Below, in pieces: positions 31,875-59,200 of a stretch of DNA of 64,000 nucleotides. Source of the DNA: Escherichia coli (GTDB taxonomy: Bacteria > Pseudomonadota > Gammaproteobacteria > Enterobacterales > Enterobacteriaceae); NCBI RefSeq assembly GCF_030013595.1, contig NZ_CP122771.1, one strand, 5' to 3'. The notes below the pieces were generated by a model that made no database searches, was not told where the DNA came from, and worked only from the letters and a program-made list of their open reading frames with translations. The first letter of the stretch is position 1, and each line of letters opens with the position of its first letter. Made by a program: the position numbers and the translations under genes.

Positions 31875-32049
31875 AAGTGACTTCTCCTGAATAATCCGGC
31901 CCGCGCCGGAGGCATTCGCACGCCTGAAGCCTGTCAGCGAACAAAAAAGCAGCACTGCATACAAAAAACAATCTCATCATCCACCTTCAGGTGCATCCGG
32001 TTCCCCCTGTTTTTGATGCAAAACACCTCCCACAGACGGGTAATTTTGC

Positions 32050-32058
32050 TTATCCACA
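32050..32058 (+). promoter_or_regulatory. DnaA box (TTATCCACA) in the probable oriR downstream of repA1
   Basis: Perfect consensus 9-mer about 175 bp after the repA1 stop, where the IncFII origin lies. Confidence 0.4.
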
Positions 32059-32786
32059 TTTAACTGCAAGGGACTTCCCCATAAGGTTACAACCGTTCAT
32101 GTCATAAAGCGCCAGCCGTCAGCGTTACAGGGTGCAATGTATCTTTTAAACACCTGTTTATATCTCCTTTAAACTACTTAATTACATTCATTTAAAAAGA
32201 AAACCTATTCACTGCCTGTCCTGTGGACAGACAGATATGCACCTCCCACCGCAAGCGGCGGGCCCCGACCAGAAACTATTTAGTTACAACACTCAAATAC
32301 AACCACCGGAAGAACCCCGGTCCCGCGCAGAACTGAAACCACAAAGCCCCTCCTCATAACTGAAAAGCGAGGCCGCCCCCGCCCAAAGGGCGGGAACAAC
32401 ATCGCTTTTAATTATGAATGTTGTAACTACATTATCATCGCTGCCAGTTCTCTGGCTGGAAGTCCTCAGTACACGCTCGTAAGCGGCCCTCACGGCCCGC
32501 TAACGCGGAGATACGCCCCGACTTCGGGTAAACCCTTGTCGGGACCACTCCGACCGCGCACAGAAGCTCTCTCATGGCTGAAAGCGGGTATGGTCTGGCA
32601 GGGCCGGGGATGGGTAAGGTGAAATCTATCAATCAGTACCGGCTTACGCCGGGCTTCGGCGGTTTTACTCCTGTATCATATGAAACAACAGAGTGCCGCC
32701 TTCCATGCCGCTGATGCGGCATATCCTGGTGACGATATCTGAATCGTTATATACTGTGTATATACGTAGTAATGACGAGGTGATAA

Positions 32787-33056
32787 ATGGCACAGGTTAA
32801 TATGAGTTTAAGAATCGACGCTGAACTGAAGGATGCTTTTATGGCCGCTGCAAAAAGCATGGACCGTAATGGCTCTCAGTTAATCCGGGATTTTATGCGC
32901 CAGACCGTTGAACGGCAGCATAATACCTGGTTCCGTGACCAGGTTGCGGCAGGACGTCAGCAACTCGAGCACGGCGATGTGCTTCCCCATGACATGGTCG
33001 AATCTTCTGCTGCTGCATGGCGGGATGAGATGAGCAGGAAGATTGCCGGTAAATGA
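32787..33056 (+). CDS. Ribbon-helix-helix antitoxin (RelB/ParD-like)
   Basis: 89 aa, MAQVNMSLRIDAELKDAFMAAAKSMDRNGSQLIRDFMRQ is a typical RHH; stop overlaps the downstream start (ATGATG). Confidence 0.7.
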   Translation: MAQVNMSLRIDAELKDAFMAAAKSMDRNGSQLIRDFMRQTVERQHNTWFRDQVAAGRQQLEHGDVLPHDMVESSAAAWRDEMSRKIAGK

Positions 33057-33217
33057 TGGAGATATTTTGGACCATGCTGGCCAGCCAGGACAGGAAGCGC
33101 ATTCGTGAGTACATTGCGGAGCAGAACCTGATGGTCGCCATTGAACTGGACGAACGGATTGGTTATTTCGGACGAACGCACCGGCTTACGCCGGTTTTAC
33201 ATCTGTACTACATGTAA
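33056..33217 (+). pseudogene. Truncated RelE/ParE-like toxin (53 codons)
   Basis: Reading frame MEIFWTMLASQDRKRIREYIAEQNLMVAIELDERIGYFGRTHRLTPVLHLYYM runs into the repeat motif accggcttacgccgg and stops; too short for a functional toxin. Confidence 0.45.
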
Positions 33218-33264
33218 CCTCATACACACATAAATGAGTAACATACTGATTAATATGGTAAATC

Positions 33265-34188
33265 ATGACGATTGAAAGCTTTTTTATTGGCACCCGCCGC
33301 TCTGATAAACGTTACGGGCCTCAGAGCAAGGATATGCAGGTTTCTGAATTCATTTCTCTGATTTCTCCCCAAAATGCCCCTCATAAGGTTGTGTTACCTG
33401 ATTTTACTGGTCTGGCAATTCAGCTTGATGCACAAATCAGGAACCAGTTTCATCAACTGAAAGAGGATGAGCACTTCCTTCGATATCGGCAGTTGTCGGA
33501 AAGGTGGTATCAGGCGGACTCTATTAGTGACAGAAACAACCGCAGTAAGCGTTTTGAGAAGATCATGGATGACTCACTTGATTTTTTGCTTTACAGCCAA
33601 GACGTCATGCCTAACATCAATCCAGATGATCTCCAATGGCATGATTACGAAAAGGCTAGCAGTAAGGGTAAAATGTACTGTGTAGCGCTTCTGTTCCATG
33701 TCATTGCACGGGCTGCATATGAACCCGAATCTGTGGGTAAAGATCCGACACTTCCAGAATATTGCCGGTGGATGAAAAATTGGATAGAGAAAACATTAGG
33801 TCATGATTTTTTAGATAGAATGATGATCTATTGTGCGCTGTTTGCCCCAGCGTATTTTCCCGCGTTACAACGTCTGAGCGGAGAGAAAGAAACGCGTGAT
33901 GTCCATGAATTCCTGGCTGAGCATGTTCGCACTTTAGCTCAAAAAAATTCTTCAGAGGTAAATTATAGAGATCAACGGCAATTCACGTTTGGCTACACCA
34001 TGTTCACGAAGCAACAATTTGAATTTCTGGGCATGATGCGCGATGTCCATTACCGGATTGATTGTATTGAACAGCTCCTTCTGGACCTTATAGAACGTAA
34101 GGTTGTGGATTTCACTGATGCATCTGTTGCAGGCACGTGGATTGAGAAGCAAATTCAGCGGCTTGAATCAAACGACGTAAAGCAGTAA
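33265..34188 (+). CDS. Hypothetical protein (307 aa), orphan
   Basis: Long ORF with ATG start immediately after the truncated toxin; no recognisable family. Confidence 0.5.
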   Translation: MTIESFFIGTRRSDKRYGPQSKDMQVSEFISLISPQNAPHKVVLPDFTGLAIQLDAQIRNQFHQLKEDEHFLRYRQLSERWYQADSISDRNNRSKRFEKIMDDSLDFLLYSQDVMPNINPDDLQWHDYEKASSKGKMYCVALLFHVIARAAYEPESVGKDPTLPEYCRWMKNWIEKTLGHDFLDRMMIYCALFAPAYFPALQRLSGEKETRDVHEFLAEHVRTLAQKNSSEVNYRDQRQFTFGYTMFTKQQFEFLGMMRDVHYRIDCIEQLLLDLIERKVVDFTDASVAGTWIEKQIQRLESNDVKQ

Positions 34189-34807
34189 CCCTCTGAACTG
34201 TAAATTGGGTAGTCAGATTTAATTATTGGCACCTGTTCATAGGTGCCACCTTTCTGAAAGAATGTATCCTAATTTTTCGATATCCAAACTGACCCCTATT
34301 TTAGATGTTTCATTTATCACACCCTAAAGCTGAATATTTATCACAAGCCATTTTTACCGATAAATAACTAAGGCGATCAATGCCAATGGACTTACAATAA
34401 TAAACAGATTCTTTTTTGCTATTCAGGTTCGTAACACGGGGTCTGAAGTCCAATGGAACGAAAACGTACGTTAGTGAAGTAACTGTATGATATATCAAGA
34501 CATAATGGACATAGAAAAACGCCATCAAAACGGTGTCTTTTTAATCGAAAATTGGCACTTAACGGACGGCATTGTCTACTAATCGATTTTTAGACGATAA
34601 TTTTCCTCTTACCGTACATTTTCGTACGGTTGGCCCTCAAACCCCGATTTGAACTCAATCGGATAACCTGAATGCAATACCGCAATGGCGATAATTTAAA
34701 AGCGATAGCCGTTGACGCAAAATCAATCCGTTACGCATCTCTATTGGTTAAATAATGCGCTTAACGTACAAAATTTTCCCATATCCAAACTGACCCCTTA
34801 AAGGACA

Positions 34808-35155
34808 TCAACACGCATTCGGCGTTTTTTCTTGTCCAATTGTGATTTTCGTGAGCTCCGTATCAGTGAAATTTCCCTTTCCTGATTCTGTGTCAAAGTC
34901 ACCAGGTTTGAACCGGTGTACATCCTGCCATATAGAGAAACAGGTGTGGCAGGTGACAGGCAGTTCTCCATCAGCCACCTTTTCGCAGTTTTCAATCAGT
35001 ACCCGTTCCTTATTGTATTGTAAGTTATAACCACTTGTGCAAAGCGTTTCATACCCGTGAGCGCCTGTCACGATATGTGTGGCAATCCGTTCCCTGACTT
35101 TTCCGTTCACTAATAACTGTTCACGTGTGGTGATCGTTCGCATTCTCTTCCTCAT
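34808..35155 (-). CDS. Hypothetical protein (115 aa) with Cys/His pattern
   Basis: Minus-strand ORF convergent with the 307-aa gene; RBS-like ggaaa before ATG; cysteines and histidines suggest possible metal binding. Confidence 0.4.
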   Translation of the reverse strand: MRKRMRTITTREQLLVNGKVRERIATHIVTGAHGYETLCTSGYNLQYNKERVLIENCEKVADGELPVTCHTCFSIWQDVHRFKPGDFDTESGKGNFTDTELTKITIGQEKTPNAC

Positions 35156-35480
35156 CAGCTTTCCTGTAGAAGCCTCCTGACTATAAGGCTCCGGATATCT
35201 TACCCGCTCATTTTGGCTGGAGGTAGTGGTGGCGTCAGAGGATGAATTACTGACATTGTATATGAAGCTTTGAGTTTTTTCTGGATTTCATCAGTGTTTA
35301 TCTTTATTTGTTCTTGTTTGTTCTCTTTTGTGCTGTTGGAGTCGGTTTTTGTCTGTGTTTTTCTTTATTTTTCCATTTGTGGCCGATATCAGGTCTTTAC
35401 CGATACGTTGTTTTAGGTGATAATCGTTTTTGATCTCGTATTTTTCTAAAAAAATCCATTTTATTTATGTGAGGTTCTAG

Positions 35481-36461
35481 ATGCGTATCTTTGTAGACGA
35501 CGGCTCTACCAACATCAAACTGGCCTGGGTTGAAGACGGTGCAGTGAAAACGTTAATTAGTCCGAATAGTTTTAAGCCGGAATGGTCTATGACGCTGCAG
35601 GGACTGACTGATGCCACTGTACCCGCTTCCGCAAACTATGAGATTGATGGAGAAAAATACAGCTTTGATCAATTGAGTCCGGATGCAGTGCGCACCACAG
35701 AAACGCGTTATCAGTACAGCGACGTTAATGTGGTTGCTATTCATCATGCGTTGATGCAGTCAGGTATTGCTCCACAACCTGTTGATATTGTTGTGACTTT
35801 ACCTTTAGGTGAGTATCTGGATGAGAACGATCAGCCAAATCTGGCTAATATCGAACGTAAGAAAAATAATGTCCGGCGAACTGTAACAGTTCAGGGGCGT
35901 GAAAACTTTACCATTCGTAAAGTCAGTGTCTTGCCTGAGTCCGTGCCTGCCGGTTTTGACGTGCTGAAAGATCTGAATGATCTGGAGTCGCTGTTGATTG
36001 TTGATATCGGTGGAACGACCCTTGATATTGCACATGTCCGCAGCAAAATGTCAGGTTTCACAAAAACCTATTGTGACCCCAAGACTGGCGTCTCCATCAT
36101 TACTGAAGCAGTTAAGCATGCGATGGATGTGAATGTGAGTACACGAACCAGTTCTTATTTTGCAGATCGTCTAATCCAGGGCCGGGATGACAATGAATTC
36201 CTGACCCGTTATATCCCGAATGCAGAACAGCGTGAGCGGATCCTGACAGTATTACGTGACCGGGAAAAAAAACTGCAGCATCGTGTGGCGGATTCAGTAG
36301 GACGCTTTGCTGGTTTTACTCATGTTATGGTTGTTGGCGGTGGTGCCAGCCTTGTGGCTGGGGCAGTAAAAAAAGCGACAGGAGTGGGTGATAACCGTTT
36401 CTTTGTCAGTGACAATCCTCAGTTCGATCTGGTGTTGGGAATGATGGCAATGAAGGGATGA
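35481..36461 (+). CDS. stbA: StbA/ParM actin-like partition ATPase
   Basis: 326 aa; MRIFVDDGSTNIKLAW... and DIGGTTLDI motifs match recalled R1 ParM / R100 StbA. Confidence 0.85.
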   Translation: MRIFVDDGSTNIKLAWVEDGAVKTLISPNSFKPEWSMTLQGLTDATVPASANYEIDGEKYSFDQLSPDAVRTTETRYQYSDVNVVAIHHALMQSGIAPQPVDIVVTLPLGEYLDENDQPNLANIERKKNNVRRTVTVQGRENFTIRKVSVLPESVPAGFDVLKDLNDLESLLIVDIGGTTLDIAHVRSKMSGFTKTYCDPKTGVSIITEAVKHAMDVNVSTRTSSYFADRLIQGRDDNEFLTRYIPNAEQRERILTVLRDREKKLQHRVADSVGRFAGFTHVMVVGGGASLVAGAVKKATGVGDNRFFVSDNPQFDLVLGMMAMKG

Positions 36462-36886
36462 GTATGGCTGATAATCGTAAGTGCTCTTTTTATATTTATC
36501 CGGAACGAAATGCAGCTGATCGGGTGGCTGACAGGTTTCTTGAAAAATTGCCTCAGAAAGAACGTGGTCGGGCAATGCGGGCCATGATGTTGTGTGGTGC
36601 TGCATTGATGAAGCAGGATGAACGATTGCCGTTCCTGATAGCTGAATTCCTGACAGACAGCACGTCTATGCAGGATATTCAACGAATTATCAGTAGTACG
36701 CTACCACAACAGGAAAATGGTGAAGTCGTTCGTTTGCTGGAGGCATTTCTGCAGTCTGCTGGTAATAATGCAAAAGCGATCCTGCCTGCGGTTGATTCTG
36801 CTACGCAAGAAATATCTGCTCCAGTCGATCAGAATCTCCTGGAAACAAGAAACAACATTAAGAACTTGTTTCCGGATGATGAATAA
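36458..36886 (+). CDS. stbB: StbB/ParR partition adaptor
   Basis: 142-aa ORF overlapping the stbA stop; position as ParR/StbB. Confidence 0.65.
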   Translation: MSMADNRKCSFYIYPERNAADRVADRFLEKLPQKERGRAMRAMMLCGAALMKQDERLPFLIAEFLTDSTSMQDIQRIISSTLPQQENGEVVRLLEAFLQSAGNNAKAILPAVDSATQEISAPVDQNLLETRNNIKNLFPDDE

Positions 36887-47277: not shown

Positions 47278-49236
47278 ATGTCAGTTACAGAGTCTAAGAC
47301 AAAAACGGAGCGTAAATCCAGCCGTAAACCTGCAAAAACGCAGGAAACAGTCCTGTCTGCCCTGCTGGCGCAGACGGAGGAAGTGAGCGTGCCGCTGGCC
47401 TCACTGATTAAATCACCGCTGAATGTGCGCACGGTGCCGTATTCTGCGGAGTCCGTCAGCGAACTGGCGGACTCCATTAAAGGTGTCGGCCTGTTACAGA
47501 ATCTGGTTGTTCATGCCCTGCCAGGTGACCGTTACGGTGTCGCCGCAGGCGGTCGCCGACTGGCAGCACTCAACATGCTGGCAGAGCGCAACATCCTTCC
47601 GGCTGACTGGCCTGTACGCGTGAAGGTCATTCCGCAGGAGCTGGCGACTGCCGCATCGATGACCGAGAACGGTCAGCGTCGGGATATGCACCCTGCCGAA
47701 CAGATTGCCGGATTCCGCGCAATGGCGCAGGAAGGCAAAACACCTGCACAAATCGGTGATTTGCTGGGCTATTCACCCCGCCACGTTCAGCGAATGCTGA
47801 AACTGGCTGACCTTGCGCCTGTCATCCTCGATGCGCTGGCAGAAGACCGCATCACCACCGAACACTGTCAGGCGCTGGCGCTGGAGAACGACACCGCGCG
47901 TCAGGTGCAGGTGTTTGAAGCCGCCTGTCAGTCGGGATGGGGCGGTAAACCGGAAGTACAGACCATTCGTCGTCTGGTGACCGAAAGTGAAGTGGCGGTG
48001 GCGGGGAACAGTAAATTCCGCTTCGTGGGGGCTGATGCCTTCTCGCCAGACGAACTGCGCACCGATTTGTTCAGCGACGACGAAGGTGGCTATGTGGACT
48101 GCGTGGCGCTCGATGCCGCCCTGCTGGAAAAACTCCAGGCTGTCGCAGAGTTCCTTCGGGAAGCCGAAGGCTGGGAATGGTGCGCCGGACGCATGGAGCC
48201 TGTCGGTGAGTGCCGTGAGGATGCCGGAACATACCGCTGTCTGCCGGAGCCGGAAGCGGTGCTGACGGAGGCGGAAGAAGAACGTCTGAACGAACTGATG
48301 ACGCGTTACGACGCGCCGGAAAACCAGTGTGAGGAATCTGACCTGCTGGAAGCAGAAATGAAGCTGATGCGCTGCATGGCGAAGGTCAGGGCGTGGACGC
48401 CGGAGATGCGTGCCGGAGGTGGAGTGGTGGTGTCCTGGCGTTATGGCAACGTGTGTGTCCAGCGTGGTGTGCAGTTGCGCAGTGAGGATGACGTGGCTGA
48501 CGACGCTGACCGTACGGAACAGGTGCAGGAGAAAGCGTCAGTGGAGGAAATCAGTCTGCCACTGCTGACGAAAATGTCTTCCGAACGCACGCTGGCAGTC
48601 CAGGCAGCACTGATGCAGCAACCGGACAAATCTCTGGCACTGCTGGCATGGACGCTCTGCCTGAATGTGTTTGGCAGCGGAGCGTACAGTAAACCAGCAC
48701 AAATCAGCCTGGAATGTAAACATTATTCGCTGACCAGCGATGCGCCATCGGGGAAGGAAGGTGCCGCATTCATGGCGCTGATGGCAGAAAAAGCCCGTCT
48801 TGCTGCCCTGTTACCGGAGGGATGGTCACGGGACATGACGACATTCCTGTCACTCAGTCAGGAGGTGCTGTTATCCCTGCTCAGTTTCTGCACCGCATGC
48901 AGCCTTAACGGTGTCCAGACCCGTGAGTGTGGTCACACGTCACGCAGTCCGCTTGACACGCTGGAAACCGCCATCGGCTTTCACATGCGAGACTGGTGGC
49001 AGCCGACAAAAGCAAACTTCTTCGGACACCTGAAAAAGCCGCAGATTATCGCAGCCCTGAATGATGCCGGACTGTCCGGTGCCGCACGGGATGCAGAGAA
49101 GATGAAGAAAGGTGATGCGGCTGAACATGCAGAGCACCATATGAAAGACAACCGCTGGGTGCCTGGCTGGATGTGTGCACCACGTCCACAGACGGATACC
49201 ACTGAACGCACCGATAACCTGGCTGATGCCGCCTGA
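47278..49236 (+). CDS. ParB-like nuclease-domain protein (652 aa)
   Basis: RBS aaaggaga before ATG; N-terminal ParB/Srx-like region (LQNLVVHALPGDRYGVAAGGRRLAAL). Confidence 0.75.
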   Translation: MSVTESKTKTERKSSRKPAKTQETVLSALLAQTEEVSVPLASLIKSPLNVRTVPYSAESVSELADSIKGVGLLQNLVVHALPGDRYGVAAGGRRLAALNMLAERNILPADWPVRVKVIPQELATAASMTENGQRRDMHPAEQIAGFRAMAQEGKTPAQIGDLLGYSPRHVQRMLKLADLAPVILDALAEDRITTEHCQALALENDTARQVQVFEAACQSGWGGKPEVQTIRRLVTESEVAVAGNSKFRFVGADAFSPDELRTDLFSDDEGGYVDCVALDAALLEKLQAVAEFLREAEGWEWCAGRMEPVGECREDAGTYRCLPEPEAVLTEAEEERLNELMTRYDAPENQCEESDLLEAEMKLMRCMAKVRAWTPEMRAGGGVVVSWRYGNVCVQRGVQLRSEDDVADDADRTEQVQEKASVEEISLPLLTKMSSERTLAVQAALMQQPDKSLALLAWTLCLNVFGSGAYSKPAQISLECKHYSLTSDAPSGKEGAAFMALMAEKARLAALLPEGWSRDMTTFLSLSQEVLLSLLSFCTACSLNGVQTRECGHTSRSPLDTLETAIGFHMRDWWQPTKANFFGHLKKPQIIAALNDAGLSGAARDAEKMKKGDAAEHAEHHMKDNRWVPGWMCAPRPQTDTTERTDNLADAA

Positions 49237-50474: not shown

Positions 50475-52046
50475 TTACTGAGAGGTCAGATCAACTTTCC
50501 AGGGCAACAGATCGCGTACCCGGTTTGCCGGCCAATCCTGGATATGCTCAATGACGTAACGCAGCCATTTTTCTGGTTCCACATTGTTCAGACGGCATGT
50601 GCCGATCAGCGAGTACAACACCGCCGCATGTTCGCCACCGCTGTCGGAACCCGCGAAGAGCCAGTTTTTCCGGCCTACGGCCACTCCCCGTAAGGCGTTC
50701 TCTGCGATGTTGTTGTCGATTTCCACCCAGCCATTACTGCAGTACACGTTCAGGGCCTCCCACTGTTTCAGCAGGTATGCGAACGCTTTTGCCGTATCCG
50801 AGTGACGCGACAGTGTTTTCATCTGTTCCTGTATCCAGTCATACAGTGACTGCATCAGTGGAGCCGCTCTGGCTTTTCTTGCTGCCAGACGCTGTTCTGC
50901 TGAACATCCCCGGACTTCTGCCTCGATGACATACAGTTCACCGATACGCTGCAGGGCTTCCGTGGTGATGTCGGTTGGCACTCTTGCATGCACATCGTGG
51001 ATTTTTCTCCGGGCATGGGCCATACACGCGGCTTCCGTTATTCTGCCGGATTCGTATAACGCCCGGTAACCACCGTAAGCATCTGCCTGAAGCACACCGC
51101 TGTAACCGGCCAGGTGATTCTGTGGATGGATACCTTTCCGGTCCGGGCTGTACGCGAACCAGACCGCCGGGGGCATCTGTGAACCGGCGTTACGGTCATC
51201 ACGGACATAGACCCACAGCCGGGCAGTTCTTGTTTTACCACTGCCCGGCTCCTGGACCGGAACGGGGATATCATCCGCATGGACTTTACCGGGCATCAGC
51301 ACATACTGGCGCAGCACGTCATACAGCGGCTCCAGCAGTTCAGCAACGGCACCGGTCCAGCGCCCCAGCGTGGCGCGGCTCAGTTCCACGCCCTGACGAA
51401 GGTATATTTCTGACTGGCGGTATAACGGCAGATGGTCTGCATACTTCCCGGTGACGATATGAGCCAGAAGCCCCGCTCCGGCATAACTGCGTGCAATGGG
51501 TTTTGAAGGTACTGGTGCCTGCACGATATGGTCGCACCGGCAACAGGCCAGTTTCGGACGTTGTGTTTCGATAACCTTAAAAGCGCTGCTGATAAGCTCC
51601 AGTTGCTCTGACACATCACACCCCAGAGGACTGAGGTCACCACCACAGGCCGGGCAGCATTCCTCTTCCGGCCGGATGACCCGGGTTTCACGGGGAAGTG
51701 AGGCCGGTAACGGCTTACGGGCTGAAGACTGGCGCAGGGCGGATGGCAGTACCGGGTCATATTGCTCATCCAGCGTTTCCGCCATTTCTTCCTGAAGTGC
51801 GCTGATTCGCTCCTGGGCTTCCTGTATCTGCCGTTCGGTTTTAGCGCGAAGTTTTTCTGAGCTTTTACCGAACTGCATGCGCTGCAGTTTCGCAACCAGC
51901 GCCTTCAGCCGGTTGATTTCGGAAGCATAAGCCGCCACCCGCTGTGAGAGCAGGCGGTTGTATTTCGCCATCTGGCGGATGGTGTCCTGTTGCGTCTGCA
52001 ACAGTGCCCGCAGGCGGGCATTCTCATGAGCAAGTGAGGTGTCCAT
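50475..52046 (-). CDS. IS66-family transposase (TnpC)
   Basis: 523 aa with N-terminal coiled coil, CxxC...CC zinc-finger region and DDE-type core typical of IS66 TnpC. Confidence 0.9.
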
Positions 52047-52065
52047 ATCCTCACTTTACAACGGG

Positions 52066-52413
52066 TTATATGCGGATGCCAGCGCGTTCCGTTCGTTTCG
52101 GGTGCTTCCAGTCGATGCCTTCGAGAAGCATGGACAACTGAGCCGGAGTAAGGTGAACCTTTCCATCGCGGGTGACCGGCCAGACGAAGCGGCCCCGCTC
52201 CAGGCGTTTGGTGAAGAGGCACAGTCCGTCACTGTCAGCCCACAGCACTTTTATCTGGTCACCCCGGCGTCCGCGGAAGATGAACAGATGCCCGGAGAAC
52301 GGGTCATCCTTCAGGACGTTCTGAACTTTTGAGGCCAGGCCGTTAAAGCCATTTCGCATATCGGTGATACCGGCAACCAGCCAGATACGCGAACCGGCAG
52401 GGAGAGATATCAT
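52066..52413 (-). CDS. IS66-family accessory protein TnpB (Orf2)
   Basis: 115 aa, MISLPAGSRIWLVAGITDMRNGFNGLA... typical IS66 Orf2. Confidence 0.85.
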   Translation of the reverse strand: MISLPAGSRIWLVAGITDMRNGFNGLASKVQNVLKDDPFSGHLFIFRGRRGDQIKVLWADSDGLCLFTKRLERGRFVWPVTRDGKVHLTPAQLSMLLEGIDWKHPKRTERAGIRI

Positions 52414-53063
52414 CAGTGGCTGCTCCCTTTCATTTCGCGGATAAGTGTCTGTAATAACGCCGGTGTCAGTTCACCTTTCAGCCTGAGAGTTCCGGCCGGC
52501 AGAACCAGCTCGCAGCACAGACTGTCTGGCAGTGTATTTATCTGTTCAGGTATCTGCACTGGTGCCGGGATTTTATTATCCGGCTCCGGAGTTAACGTCA
52601 CGGGAAGTAGCGATGTTTCATGTTCGCCGGGCGGTTGCAGGCCACCGTTACGCCAGAGATGCCGCCAGTTAAAGAGCAGGTTATCGTTAATTCCATTCTC
52701 TCGAGCTATTTGTGCGACACAAGCACCGGGTAAAAGAGTTTGCTGAACCAGTCTCCATTTAAACTCCGGTGAAAATCGGTTCCGGCGGGGTTTCTCTGCT
52801 TTCACAGGCTGAGTCACGGTCGGGGCTGAAGGGTATCGCCCCGGGAAAAGAGCCCGGGCCAGTTGCCCGCAGGAATATTCACCGGAAAGAGGCCAGTCAG
52901 TGAATACCTGGTGAAATCGCCTCACCAGAGAAAAAATGGCGGTTTTGCTGACACCGGTCTGCGCAGAAATGCGCGGGTACGACAGTGACTCGTCAAATCT
53001 CAGCTGTAGCACACGCAGGATCAATTCCGGATTGTCTGCCAGTACCGCTTTTCGTGCATTCAT
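52413..53063 (-). CDS. IS66-family accessory protein TnpA (Orf1, HTH)
   Basis: 216-aa ORF overlapping the tnpB start; first gene of the IS66 operon. Confidence 0.75.
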   Translation of the reverse strand: MNARKAVLADNPELILRVLQLRFDESLSYPRISAQTGVSKTAIFSLVRRFHQVFTDWPLSGEYSCGQLARALFPGRYPSAPTVTQPVKAEKPRRNRFSPEFKWRLVQQTLLPGACVAQIARENGINDNLLFNWRHLWRNGGLQPPGEHETSLLPVTLTPEPDNKIPAPVQIPEQINTLPDSLCCELVLPAGTLRLKGELTPALLQTLIREMKGSSH

Positions 53064-53902: not shown

Positions 53903-56246
53903 GGGTCGGGTAGCAGCGGCACATTGCTGCGCCGCCGCCCCCTAAGAACGGAGCGTGCGAGTTTTCCCGCACTCCGCTCAAGCCTTTATAAGTGCTTTCG
54001 GTGAGCACCGGCTTCCCTGCTGTGTAACTGTCGGTGGCAGTTCGGATGTAACAACTCGAGATTGGTCAGTTCGTCACTGCCGCCCATAACTTTCCTGATC
54101 CGGTGATGTATATTCCATCCGGTCTGGTTGGTTATGAGTTGTCCGCACTGCGGACAGTGTTTCCCCTGCCTCTTCCAGAGTTGAACTACTGTCTTCATCT
54201 TCTTTGATTTGCCTTTCCAGATTAGATCCAGACGACGTTCAAAGTAGATTTCCATTCCGGGGGTGTATGGTGTTGCTTCGCCTTTGATTTTTATATGGCG
54301 CTTTATCGGTGTTTCCATTGCCCGGAAGAGTGTCAGAATTTTCCCTTCCGGGGTTATGGCTTTAAAGATCCAGCGCCTGCCTTCAAAGGAGAAGTATCGT
54401 CCGGCGATCCACCGCAATCCTTTCCGGGGATGCCGTCTTACACACCATCGCCATATAGCTCGCCAGATTTGGGTGTCGACATAATTAAATGTTTCTTTCG
54501 CCACGACGTGTCGGTGATAGGTAGCCCATCCCCGGATCACCGGGTTTAGCTGGCCTATCAGTTTCCATGCCGGGAGCGTCGGATTGCGTTTAATTATTTC
54601 TCTGACTTTACAGAGGAAGTTCTTCAGGTTTTTCTTCGACGGTTTAATCAGCATTTTACCGTTGTACTTCCTGACGTTCTGCCCTAAAAAGTCGAAGCCT
54701 TTATCTATATGTGTGATCGCTGTTTTTTCTTCCGACAGTTCCAGCCCTCGTTCGCGCATGAAAGCTGCAATCAGTGGTCTGACCTCATTTTCCAGCAATT
54801 CACGGGAGCTGCCTGAACAGATGAAATCATCAGCATATCTCACATAATTCACCTGGTGCTTTGCACTGTGATAACCACTTTTCCTGAACGTTTGCATCAG
54901 TTCCTTCTCCAGTCCGTCCAGAGCCATGTTGGCGAGAACAGGGGATATGATGCCTCCCTGCGGTGTCCCGCTGTTCGTATGGTTAAACACGCCTCTTTCC
55001 ATGTAACCTGCTTTCAACCATTTTTTAAGCAGTCTCCTGTCCATCGGAATATGGGAAAGCAGCCAGTCATGGCTGATGTTATCGAAACACCCTTTAATAT
55101 CGCCCTCCAGTATCCATTTGGGCGATACTTTCTGGCTCATCCGCAGAAAAATGGACTCAATGGCGTCATGCGTGCTGCGCATTGGTCTGAAACCATAGCT
55201 GTTATGGTCAGCAGTGGTCTCGGATACGGGTTCCAGAGCCAGCAGCCACAGTGCCTGCATGGCCCGGTCCCTCATTGTGGGTATGCCCAGCGGTCGCGTT
55301 TTGCCGTTTGATTTTGGGATATGTATTCGCCGTAGTGGCTGTGGCCTGTAACCACACAGATTCAGGCTGCATATTCCTTCCCATTTCTCCTTCGGTGTGT
55401 GCCATATTTTTCCGTCAATACCGGGTGTCCTTTTACCGGTATTTTCAGTTACACGCCTGACAGCCACGGCTTTGCCGGAGAATGAGCGGGTGAGGATGCG
55501 CTGTAGTTCTCTGACCTGCCGCCATTGTTGCTGTCGGGTTGCCTTTGCAATCCGTAACTGTAGCTTTCGCACCCGGGCATGGCATGCTTTCCAGTTTATG
55601 GTGTGCCAGCCTGTCGGGTGGGGTATCGTGGACACACTGATGTGTGTATTCATCTCGCTGATATCCTTTTGACTGCTTTACAGCTTTTCATGCAATTAAA
55701 GACCAGACGGAAGTCTGCCCGCTTTCGCGTCGGGGAACCTGCCCCGTATCCCGGTTATTACGGCCGGGCATTCGCTTTTTCCGTCCTCCTATGCCCGCAC
55801 CGCTAACAGTGTTCCTTGCGGTTCACCTGCCTGTGAGGCAGCGATACGGGTTTACCAGGTTCCGCTTAACATACAGAGGGTCAGGGCGGGTTCTGTCTCT
55901 TCACCGGGGGTCTCTGCGCCCATGTGCTCCCTGTGCGCGAGGTAGCAACCGGACCCCGTACCTTTTGGTTCAGGCCTGTCAGCATCTTTGGCCTGTTGCC
56001 GATAACGGTGTTTATCAACAGTTCACATGTGTTAACCCTTCTGACCAGCCTTGCTCTCCTGCCGCATGATGCTTGCAGCAAGGTAAAGCCCCTCACGGGG
56101 CTTTACCCGGGCTGACGCCCGGCTCTCGTTGTCCCGGGAGCTTCAGACCCCGCCGTTGCCGGCAACGCCTGTCCCGGTAGGCTACAGCTAATGGGATAGC
56201 TGGTTTTATCAATGTAAAACAATACGTTAAGCGACTTCCTGTCGCA
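53903..56246 (-). mobile_element. Group II intron (about 2.34 kb) inserted in a type B leading-region repeat; low-coordinate boundary uncertain by about 10 bp
   Basis: Minus-strand 5' end GTGCGAC at 56246; domain V GAGCGGAGTGCGGGAAAACTCGCACGCTCCGTTC at 53946-53979; flanks rejoin to match uninterrupted copy 1 at 42459-42510. Confidence 0.8.
53986..55653 (-). CDS. Group II intron-encoded protein (reverse transcriptase / maturase / HNH endonuclease)
   Basis: 555 aa with RT motifs (YADD), maturase X region and C-terminal HNH-like Cys/His cluster. Confidence 0.9.
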   Translation of the reverse strand: MNTHISVSTIPHPTGWHTINWKACHARVRKLQLRIAKATRQQQWRQVRELQRILTRSFSGKAVAVRRVTENTGKRTPGIDGKIWHTPKEKWEGICSLNLCGYRPQPLRRIHIPKSNGKTRPLGIPTMRDRAMQALWLLALEPVSETTADHNSYGFRPMRSTHDAIESIFLRMSQKVSPKWILEGDIKGCFDNISHDWLLSHIPMDRRLLKKWLKAGYMERGVFNHTNSGTPQGGIISPVLANMALDGLEKELMQTFRKSGYHSAKHQVNYVRYADDFICSGSSRELLENEVRPLIAAFMRERGLELSEEKTAITHIDKGFDFLGQNVRKYNGKMLIKPSKKNLKNFLCKVREIIKRNPTLPAWKLIGQLNPVIRGWATYHRHVVAKETFNYVDTQIWRAIWRWCVRRHPRKGLRWIAGRYFSFEGRRWIFKAITPEGKILTLFRAMETPIKRHIKIKGEATPYTPGMEIYFERRLDLIWKGKSKKMKTVVQLWKRQGKHCPQCGQLITNQTGWNIHHRIRKVMGGSDELTNLELLHPNCHRQLHSREAGAHRKHL

Positions 56247-58934: not shown

Positions 58935-59200
58935 ACAAAAAGGCTCAACAGGTTGGTGGTTCTCACCACCAAAAGCACCACACACTACGCAAAAACAAGT
59001 TTTTGCTGATTTGCCTTTTAAATCATGTAATTAACAAATGCTATTTATATTTAATAATTCTGAATTATTAAATAGAGAGTCGTTGGCGATCCTGTTACGA
59101 CCCTATAGCGACCCTTATTAGGATCAGTACTGACAATTTTCATGAAAAACATTGATATATATTAGGGGCGCCACTAGCGCCGGATCGCATTTTTTTATAG
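58935..59200 (+). other. oriT region with R100-type nic sequence (nic near 58979/58980 on the minus strand)
   Basis: Minus-strand TTTGCGTAGTGTGT^GGTGCTTTTGGTGGTGAGAACCACC matches recalled F-family oriT with R100-type nic core; followed by AT-rich region and inverted repeats before traM. Confidence 0.7.

Follow-up and report, generated by a model that had tools for sequence, protein, structure and literature searches.

ORF307, a helical protein of an undescribed family encoded beside a truncated yacB toxin gene on Escherichia coli plasmids: a candidate defence-type cargo

The described systems that come closest to the gene considered here are of several kinds. Ppl is a single-protein anti-phage system, and the OLD systems include P2 Old, Gabija (GajA/GajB) and PARIS (AriA/AriB). 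TrlF is known from the temperature-restriction (TRL) operon trlR-trlF-trlG of Photorhabdus, whose product TrlG combines AlbA_2 and HATPase_c_4 domains (bioRxiv 10.1101/2020.06.02.129163), and AbiU2 is an abortive-infection gene (PMC3710099). Here we describe ORF307, an intact open reading frame (ORF) of 307 amino acids (aa) with an ATG start and a TAA stop, located at 33265-34188 on the plus strand of a 64,000-nucleotide (nt) stretch of E. coli plasmid DNA (contig NZ_CP122771.1), which in its full length is called the window below. We regard ORF307 as a plausible candidate for an immunity or counter-immunity gene, well framed as a candidate and not presented as a discovery.

Judged by its conservation, ORF307 is a genuine protein-coding gene, because homologues with 21-98% identity align with it from end to end and the ratio of nonsynonymous to synonymous substitution rates (dN/dS) between diverged alleles is 0.06-0.19. 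The start codon is backed by the homologue alignment, every homologue beginning MTIE/MTLE...FIGTR. An initial annotation, made from the letters of the window alone, had placed a coding frame at exactly this position and described its product as an orphan with no assignable motif, and both statements hold. No significant match to ORF307 was found in Pfam, NCBIfam, PADLOC v2, PHROGs v4 or the sequences of the PDB. The best sub-threshold matches were Phage_pRha (E 0.74), phrog_25443 (E 0.065) and the J-domain chain 2ej7 (E 0.42); the last, which pairs residues 64-112 with DnaJ, was rejected, its score being at chance level and non-conserved residues standing in place of the HPD motif. A Pfam search of 30 family members likewise revealed no domain in any of them. 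Homology to a characterised housekeeping or plasmid-maintenance protein, named by the annotation as the finding that would speak against an orphan, turned up in no search. Look-up by protein accession returned no papers, and the published yacAB papers make no mention of ORF307. None of the libraries searched contains a description of the family.

The family is small. A search with the single sequence returned 19 clusters at 90% identity and a profile search returned 41, to which further iteration added none; 29 representatives at 50% identity were counted among 1.84 billion proteins. Widening the family by sequence with a 33-sequence profile brought in no further members, and no sequence carrying a Pfam domain. 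One family locus was found in 100,044 species-representative genomes, no member in a scan of IMG/VR and no copy in 50,697 phage genomes. Some member of the family is carried by about 154 PLSDB plasmids, and all members come from Enterobacterales or Aeromonas. Identical or near-identical copies of ORF307 itself, annotated as 'hypothetical protein', are present in 56 of the 72,556 PLSDB plasmids; these come from Escherichia, Shigella and Salmonella, and 52 are conjugative. Among 5,426 complete E. coli genomes, 72 contain ORF307, and all 84 places where it occurs are on plasmids, none on a chromosome. When 33 members were clustered, the window protein fell into a 'solo' clade with 46-68% identity inside the clade, next to several deeper clades.

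The protein has a mass of 36 kDa and an isoelectric point of 5.9. Its AlphaFold2 model is a soluble all-helical bundle (pLDDT 80, pTM 0.81), for which no convincing solved structural relative was found. W81, L142, L143 and R149, the last carried by the central conserved helix, are invariant in the family, and R11, G18, P19, P45, D46, Y74, P116, Y138, D160, C167, R264, L275 and F283 are nearly so. The 19-residue Kyte-Doolittle maximum is 1.1-1.5 across the family. We considered an alpha-helical pore-former (of the colicin, Cry domain I or PirB type) and rejected it, hydropathy giving no membrane-spanning hydrophobic helix or hairpin. A HEPN (AbiU2-like) catalytic motif was rejected too, there being no conserved His 4-6 residues after R149 or R264.

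Nearly all family copies sit in defence or toxin-antitoxin (TA) islands. Their further neighbours within about 5 kb comprise type I restriction-modification (R-M), SMODS+S_4TM, Ppl, putAbiC, Abi_C and 'Abi family protein' genes, as well as RES, VapBC, TacAT, CcdAB and a caspase-like peptidase. In deeper clades, the family gene lies directly 3' of a gene for a TrlF-family PHP-ABC ATPase, in Klebsiella (L017, L021-23, L043) and Serratia (L045), with plasmids and metagenomic contigs among the carriers (loci of relatives are denoted by L numbers). The Serratia and Klebsiella ATPases are only about 25-31% identical over parts of their length and their family partners 39%; the TrlF-type pairing has therefore outlasted a deep divergence of both genes. 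In one Klebsiella island, a TrlF-type pair occurs together with a solo-clade paralogue. The gene that follows the Serratia pair encodes an 'Abi family protein'.

Another recurrent order, a candidate three-gene locus, consists of a 160-aa protein gene, a gene for an OLD-like ATPase-Toprim protein of 667-678 aa and a family member. It was found in Pectobacterium (L039), where 53 nt separate the ATPase gene from the family gene, in Escherichia sp. (L024) and in Pantoea (L035). The OLD-like ATPases match Old (8e-22), GajA and AriA in PADLOC, and between Pectobacterium and Escherichia sp. the products of the first two genes are 81-82% identical. The 160-aa protein has a hydrophobic C-terminal tail; no Pfam assignment could be made for it, and neither it nor the family member matches a PADLOC v2 model. 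In Enterobacter kobei, a plasmid-borne family gene extends over the start codon of a thermonuclease (SNase) gene, which suggests that the two form a two-gene unit.

Members of the solo clade occupy diverse positions. In about 60 IncHI2 megaplasmids the gene is divergent from parA, with a RES toxin gene at a distance of 2.7 kb and ppl at 3.7 kb; in Klebsiella IncR/IncF plasmids it is flanked by insertion sequence (IS) elements; in a Morganella prophage it adjoins a CoiA-type nuclease gene; and one Klebsiella copy lies 49 nt after vapBC. On a Citrobacter conjugative plasmid it follows a gene for a 193-aa protein, near SMODS+S_4TM and a colicin operon. In L006 the slot after this conserved 193-aa gene is filled by a family member, in Pantoea L035 by a PD-T4-5 homologue; the two 193-aa proteins are 42% identical, are encoded after SMODS+S_4TM and belong to no database family. 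The 193-aa protein may regulate a slot that takes variable cargo. Its N-terminus in Citrobacter resembles a ribbon-helix-helix (RHH) domain by eye, an assignment that found no support in Pfam or NCBIfam. In Aeromonas, at a prophage border beside type I R-M, the family gene is preceded at a distance of 6 nt by the gene of a 334-aa protein whose N-terminus is RelB/DinJ-like and whose large C-terminal region is uncharacterised. No homology was found between this protein and the Citrobacter 193-aa protein.

We next consider how ORF307 reached its present place. It is preceded by copB and repA of an IncFII-type replicon, then by yacA and a stub of yacB, and it is followed by a minus-strand ORF of 115 codons and by parM/stbA and stbB. 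Its GC content is 43.5%, and that of the block from 33168 to 34798 is 41.1%, as compared with 52.2% in the window and 57.9% in repA; the annotation had called the gene moderately AT-rich and its surroundings variable. Indeed, the plasmids that share the sequence after the replicon number thousands; their match breaks off at 32776 or 33167, and in those with yacAB it extends as far as 33167 only. Alignment to the intact yacB of pAL.H8 is near-identical to 33166 and unrelated beyond, which puts the break of yacB homology at 33166/33167, 98 nt before the start of ORF307. RefSeq labels the same stub a partial pseudogene. A query laid across the junction has full-length matches in 55 plasmids, and about 1,860 others match the yacB part alone. 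Seen against all yacB-bearing plasmids, about 1,900 in number, the junction is present in 55. Of the 56 plasmids bearing ORF307, 55 have this junction, among them plasmids of different RepA types including enterotoxigenic E. coli (ETEC) plasmids such as pETEC_73. As read from these alignments, one ancestral event brought in a 1.63-kb block of 41% GC (33168-34798) and cut yacB short, and the link between the arrival of ORF307 and the decay of the toxin, put forward by the annotation as a possibility, is supported. On the far side, the match to other regions upstream of parM restarts at 34795-34805.

In more distant alleles (68-73% nucleotide identity), homology is limited to the ORF itself. Alignment of the sequences upstream of family genes shows only the ribosome-binding site (RBS) to be conserved; a conserved promoter or operator 5' of these genes was looked for in the same alignment and rejected. 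From the restriction of homology to the ORF, the conserved RBS and the post-stop stem-loop it follows that the mobile unit is essentially RBS, gene and terminator. The stem-loop is the probable terminator of this cassette. The Shine-Dalgarno sequence of ORF307 is weak (TGGT versus AGGA in relatives), and a promoter scan of the 97-nt leader found no consensus promoter. An operator-like palindrome can be read upstream of yacA. Transcription likely reaches ORF307 from yacA, by read-through from the yacA promoter.

We favour the reading that ORF307 is mobile defence-type cargo acting as a non-enzymatic sensor or regulator, with a probability of roughly 0.45; role, mechanism and mode of expression are inferred, the role from the genomic association of its relatives. 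What was observed is the gene itself, the junction, the family, its rarity and its restriction to plasmids, long-range purifying selection, the partner associations and the fold class. The reading is supported by these associations, the slot shared with PD-T4-5, the neighbourhoods, the absence of copies from the phage genomes and from IMG/VR, the plasmid location of all E. coli copies and the long-range dN/dS. The family would then belong to the gene pool of bacterial conflict (defence islands), its deep-branch members being conserved neighbours of nuclease-bearing proteins (TrlF/Ppl-like PHP-ABC ATPases, OLD-like ATPase-Toprim proteins, SNase). Because no recognisable catalytic motif is present in the family, its members are most likely non-enzymatic, protein-binding sensor or regulator modules. 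Solo forms would ride plasmids and islands as cargo that excludes phage or foreign DNA. ORF307 itself would be a mobile single-gene cassette of RBS, gene and terminator that recombined into yacB, destroyed the toxin and is now probably read through from a YacA-controlled promoter. The annotation had located the orphan in a variable region that often gathers defence and addiction genes: orphan status, variable slot and link to the truncation stand, and a role in defence or addiction is suggested by the association of the relatives, not by any motif.

Several observations weigh against this reading. Neither a TrlF-like nor an OLD-like gene is present on the window plasmid; in a check for an ATPase partner, the window ORFs longer than 600 aa were found to be genes of the tra stretch and a ParB-like gene, and those of 500-555 aa an IS66 transposase and a group II intron reverse transcriptase. 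Members of the window protein's clade stand alone in IncHI2, IncR and prophage settings, and ORF307 has no match in PADLOC, a library from 2023. The gaps between ATPase and family genes are mostly 190-730 nt, so that the two may or may not share a transcript; adjacency could reflect a shared insertion slot, and OLD-like ATPases with 81% identity precede family members with only 29% identity, which fits cassette swapping as well as partnership. In about 22 of the 72 carrying E. coli genomes (about 30%), ORF307 is truncated, several times by IS elements. At codon 85 (33517-33519), in a W-x-Q-A-G-S motif, the window allele encodes Asp in place of a near-invariant Gly, which is found in the other E. 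coli alleles examined and in 90% or more of the close family alignment; G85D may be a damaging change specific to the window copy. In favour of the reading, genes engaged in arms races often show a nonsynonymous excess such as is found between close alleles here. Compared with three near-identical alleles, the window allele shows 1, 4 and 2 changes, every one of them nonsynonymous, and when the ETEC alleles are included, 23 of 26 variable codons among E. coli IncF alleles are nonsynonymous (23 versus 3 synonymous; dN/dS about 1.3-2.2 against the ETEC alleles). Variable sites are few, and this short-range excess is therefore indistinguishable from neutrality.

The same figures, together with the truncated copies, G85D, the weak Shine-Dalgarno sequence and the promoter scan that found no promoter of its own, would also be expected of a passenger, that is, a once-functional cassette that is non-functional in the present plasmid lineage and drifts towards loss. 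We consider this unlikely, since the frame is intact in 50 of the 72 genomes and in 43 of the 56 plasmids, most alleles keep G85, and the junction persists in E. coli, Shigella, Salmonella and E. albertii plasmids of different replicon types. The nonsynonymous excess can also be enlisted for an anti-defence role, in which the family protein restrains a paired nuclease-ATPase and solo plasmid copies are captured regulators neutralising TrlF- or OLD-type immunity in new hosts. The acidic, helical protein without an enzymatic motif and the confinement of solo copies to mobile elements (84 of 84 E. coli places on plasmids) agree with it, and so does the position of ORF307 on the leading side of the origin of transfer (oriT), pointing towards oriT in the same orientation as ssb and a DNA methyltransferase gene. 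However, the gene lies about 25 kb from oriT, beyond stbAB and beside the replicon, outside the classical leading region; its relatives neighbour defence genes in defence islands and not genes of the ardA/psiB type; and the family is absent from the phage genomes. An anti-defence role is an alternative to be kept in view, though unlikely, at a level similar to that of the passenger. We think it quite unlikely that the family is a regulatory or sensor subunit common to TrlF/Ppl-like, OLD-like three-gene and SNase systems, whose solo copies on conjugative plasmids, among them this IncF plasmid and the IncHI2 megaplasmids, serve as decoys that switch these systems off in recipients.

It is very improbable that ORF307 is a growth-inhibiting protein restrained by the RHH protein YacA, in a hybrid TA-like pair in which it replaces YacB. 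In several contexts a same-strand DNA-binding or TA gene does stand directly 5' of the family gene (yacA, the Aeromonas 334-aa gene, vapBC and the Citrobacter 193-aa gene). Yet these 3-4 upstream genes come from unrelated families, the 193-aa protein lacking RHH support in Pfam and NCBIfam, and close relatives are solo, with no upstream partner, in IncHI2 and Klebsiella IncR plasmids, the Morganella prophage and Pantoea. IS-truncated copies of ORF307 coexist with intact yacA, which an addiction pair predicts neither way. A stand-alone pore-former or HEPN-type RNase effector of abortive infection is supported by neither hydropathy nor motifs, and we hold it to be very unlikely, too.

Table 1. 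Features of the window and of loci carrying relatives of ORF307 (positions prefixed by an L number refer to the locus of that name).
Feature	Position	Strand	Remarks
yacA	32787-33056	+	intact RelB/DinJ-type RHH antitoxin gene; named YacA in identical plasmids; weak RelB/DinJ NCBIfam match
truncated yacB	33053-33217	+	RelE/ParE-type toxin; 54 codons, of which about codons 1-38 authentic, then a 16-codon foreign tail and stop
leader brought in with the gene	33168-33264	+	97 nt; hairpin and T-run at 33180-33199; weak Shine-Dalgarno
ORF307	33265-34188	+	soluble, acidic, all-helical, 36 kDa; solo member of undescribed family
post-stop stem-loop	34228-34247	+	GGCACCT-gttcat-AGGTGCC; kept in the 67%-identical L012 homologue locus with a compensatory change
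mosaic non-coding tail of inserted block	34271-34798	.	27-nt direct repeat at both ends
115-codon ORF	34808-35155	-	annotated as 111 aa (WP_001340323.1)
parM/stbA	35481-36461		
stbB	36458-36886		
ParB-like gene	47278-49236		
IS66-family element	50475-53063	-	TnpA accessory protein and transposase
group II intron reverse transcriptase/maturase	53986-55653	-	
nic region of oriT	58962-58981		
TrlF-family ATPase and family gene	L043 2035-6032; L045 2180-6017; L021 1532-5515; L017 1-3696		
candidate three-gene OLD-like loci	L039 4453-8005; L024 4696-8915; L035 2473-8020		
family gene and SNase gene, E. kobei plasmid	L044 4998-6484		
193-aa gene	L006 7263-7844; L035 10535-11116		
334-aa gene, Aeromonas	L002 6991-7995		

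The tail of the inserted block (Table 1) is a mosaic. Its terminal direct repeats (34271-34297 and 34772-34798) are identical at 25 of 27 positions with a spacing of 501 nt, and their core, ATATCCAAACTGACCCCT, is exact, with 0 occurrences expected by chance. Two sub-modules, 34438-34645 and 34646-34798, are each found on their own in many other plasmids. The former (about 208 nt) turns up 3' of colicin lysis genes, next to genes for S-4TM effectors and on small plasmids, one of them from Aeromonas salmonicida; the latter (153 nt) is unannotated among 1,330 matching Enterobacterales plasmids. No dif/cer-like core of a Xer/cer site was detected within 6 mismatches in 34101-34900, and an Rfam scan of 32000-35600 gave no match.

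The 115-codon ORF beyond the block is divergent from parM and lies upstream of it. It travels with parM in IncF plasmids and in one IncI-gamma/K1 plasmid without ORF307, and no family could be assigned to it in NCBIfam, PADLOC or PHROGs. The IS66-family element and the group II intron gene are both insertions into the leading region, on the stretch from the ParB-like gene to oriT.

If the association with immune genes holds, ORF307 represents a new family that accompanies nuclease-ATPase immune genes of two kinds or more. PADLOC v2 seems to have no entry for the association of this family with TrlF/Ppl-like and OLD-like genes, and two candidate systems would lie outside that library, namely a TrlF-like ATPase with a helical partner and a 160-aa protein with an OLD-like ATPase and a helical partner. 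It would also provide a first functional hypothesis for a 'hypothetical protein' of clinically important IncF plasmids (of ETEC, enterohaemorrhagic E. coli and Shigella) and mcr-9-type IncHI2 plasmids, and solo and paired copies would constitute a natural experiment on the reuse of immune-system subunits by mobile elements. Should solo copies act as decoys, ORF307 would be a plasmid counter-immunity gene derived from a subunit of the immune system itself.

How does the family compare with known systems? JukB, the effector of the Juk anti-jumbo-phage system (PDB 9jht_B), differs from ORF307 in having 6% sequence identity; the match was not recovered by Foldseek, many unrelated helical bundles score alike, and no jukA-like gene was noticed beside family members. 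One structural neighbour of similar length in the AlphaFold database bears the name HEPN AbiU2-like (TMq 0.63, E 5e-7), but the reported Rx4-6H motif is not conserved in the family and none of 30 members matches Pfam HEPN_AbiU2. PD-T4-5, a single-gene defence candidate in PADLOC, has no sequence relationship to the family (hhalign probability 0.07%), although it occupies the same slot, after a homologous 193-aa gene beside SMODS+S_4TM, as the family member P0011 has on a different plasmid.

The partner of the OLD-like ATPase is here neither a UvrD-type helicase nor a DUF4435 Toprim protein, a 160-aa protein precedes the ATPase, and 53-730 nt or more separate the ATPase gene from the family gene. 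What these loci share with the OLD systems is an ATPase-Toprim gene, followed by a family member in three genera, and a location in defence islands. The family likewise differs from TrlG in having neither the AlbA_2 nor the HATPase_c_4 domain, and the plasmid of ORF307 carries no TrlF-like gene. Its distant relatives, however, take the place of TrlG, being encoded directly 3' of PHP-ABC ATPases that reach 538.7 bits against the NCBIfam TrlF cut-off of 350 and are also Ppl-like.
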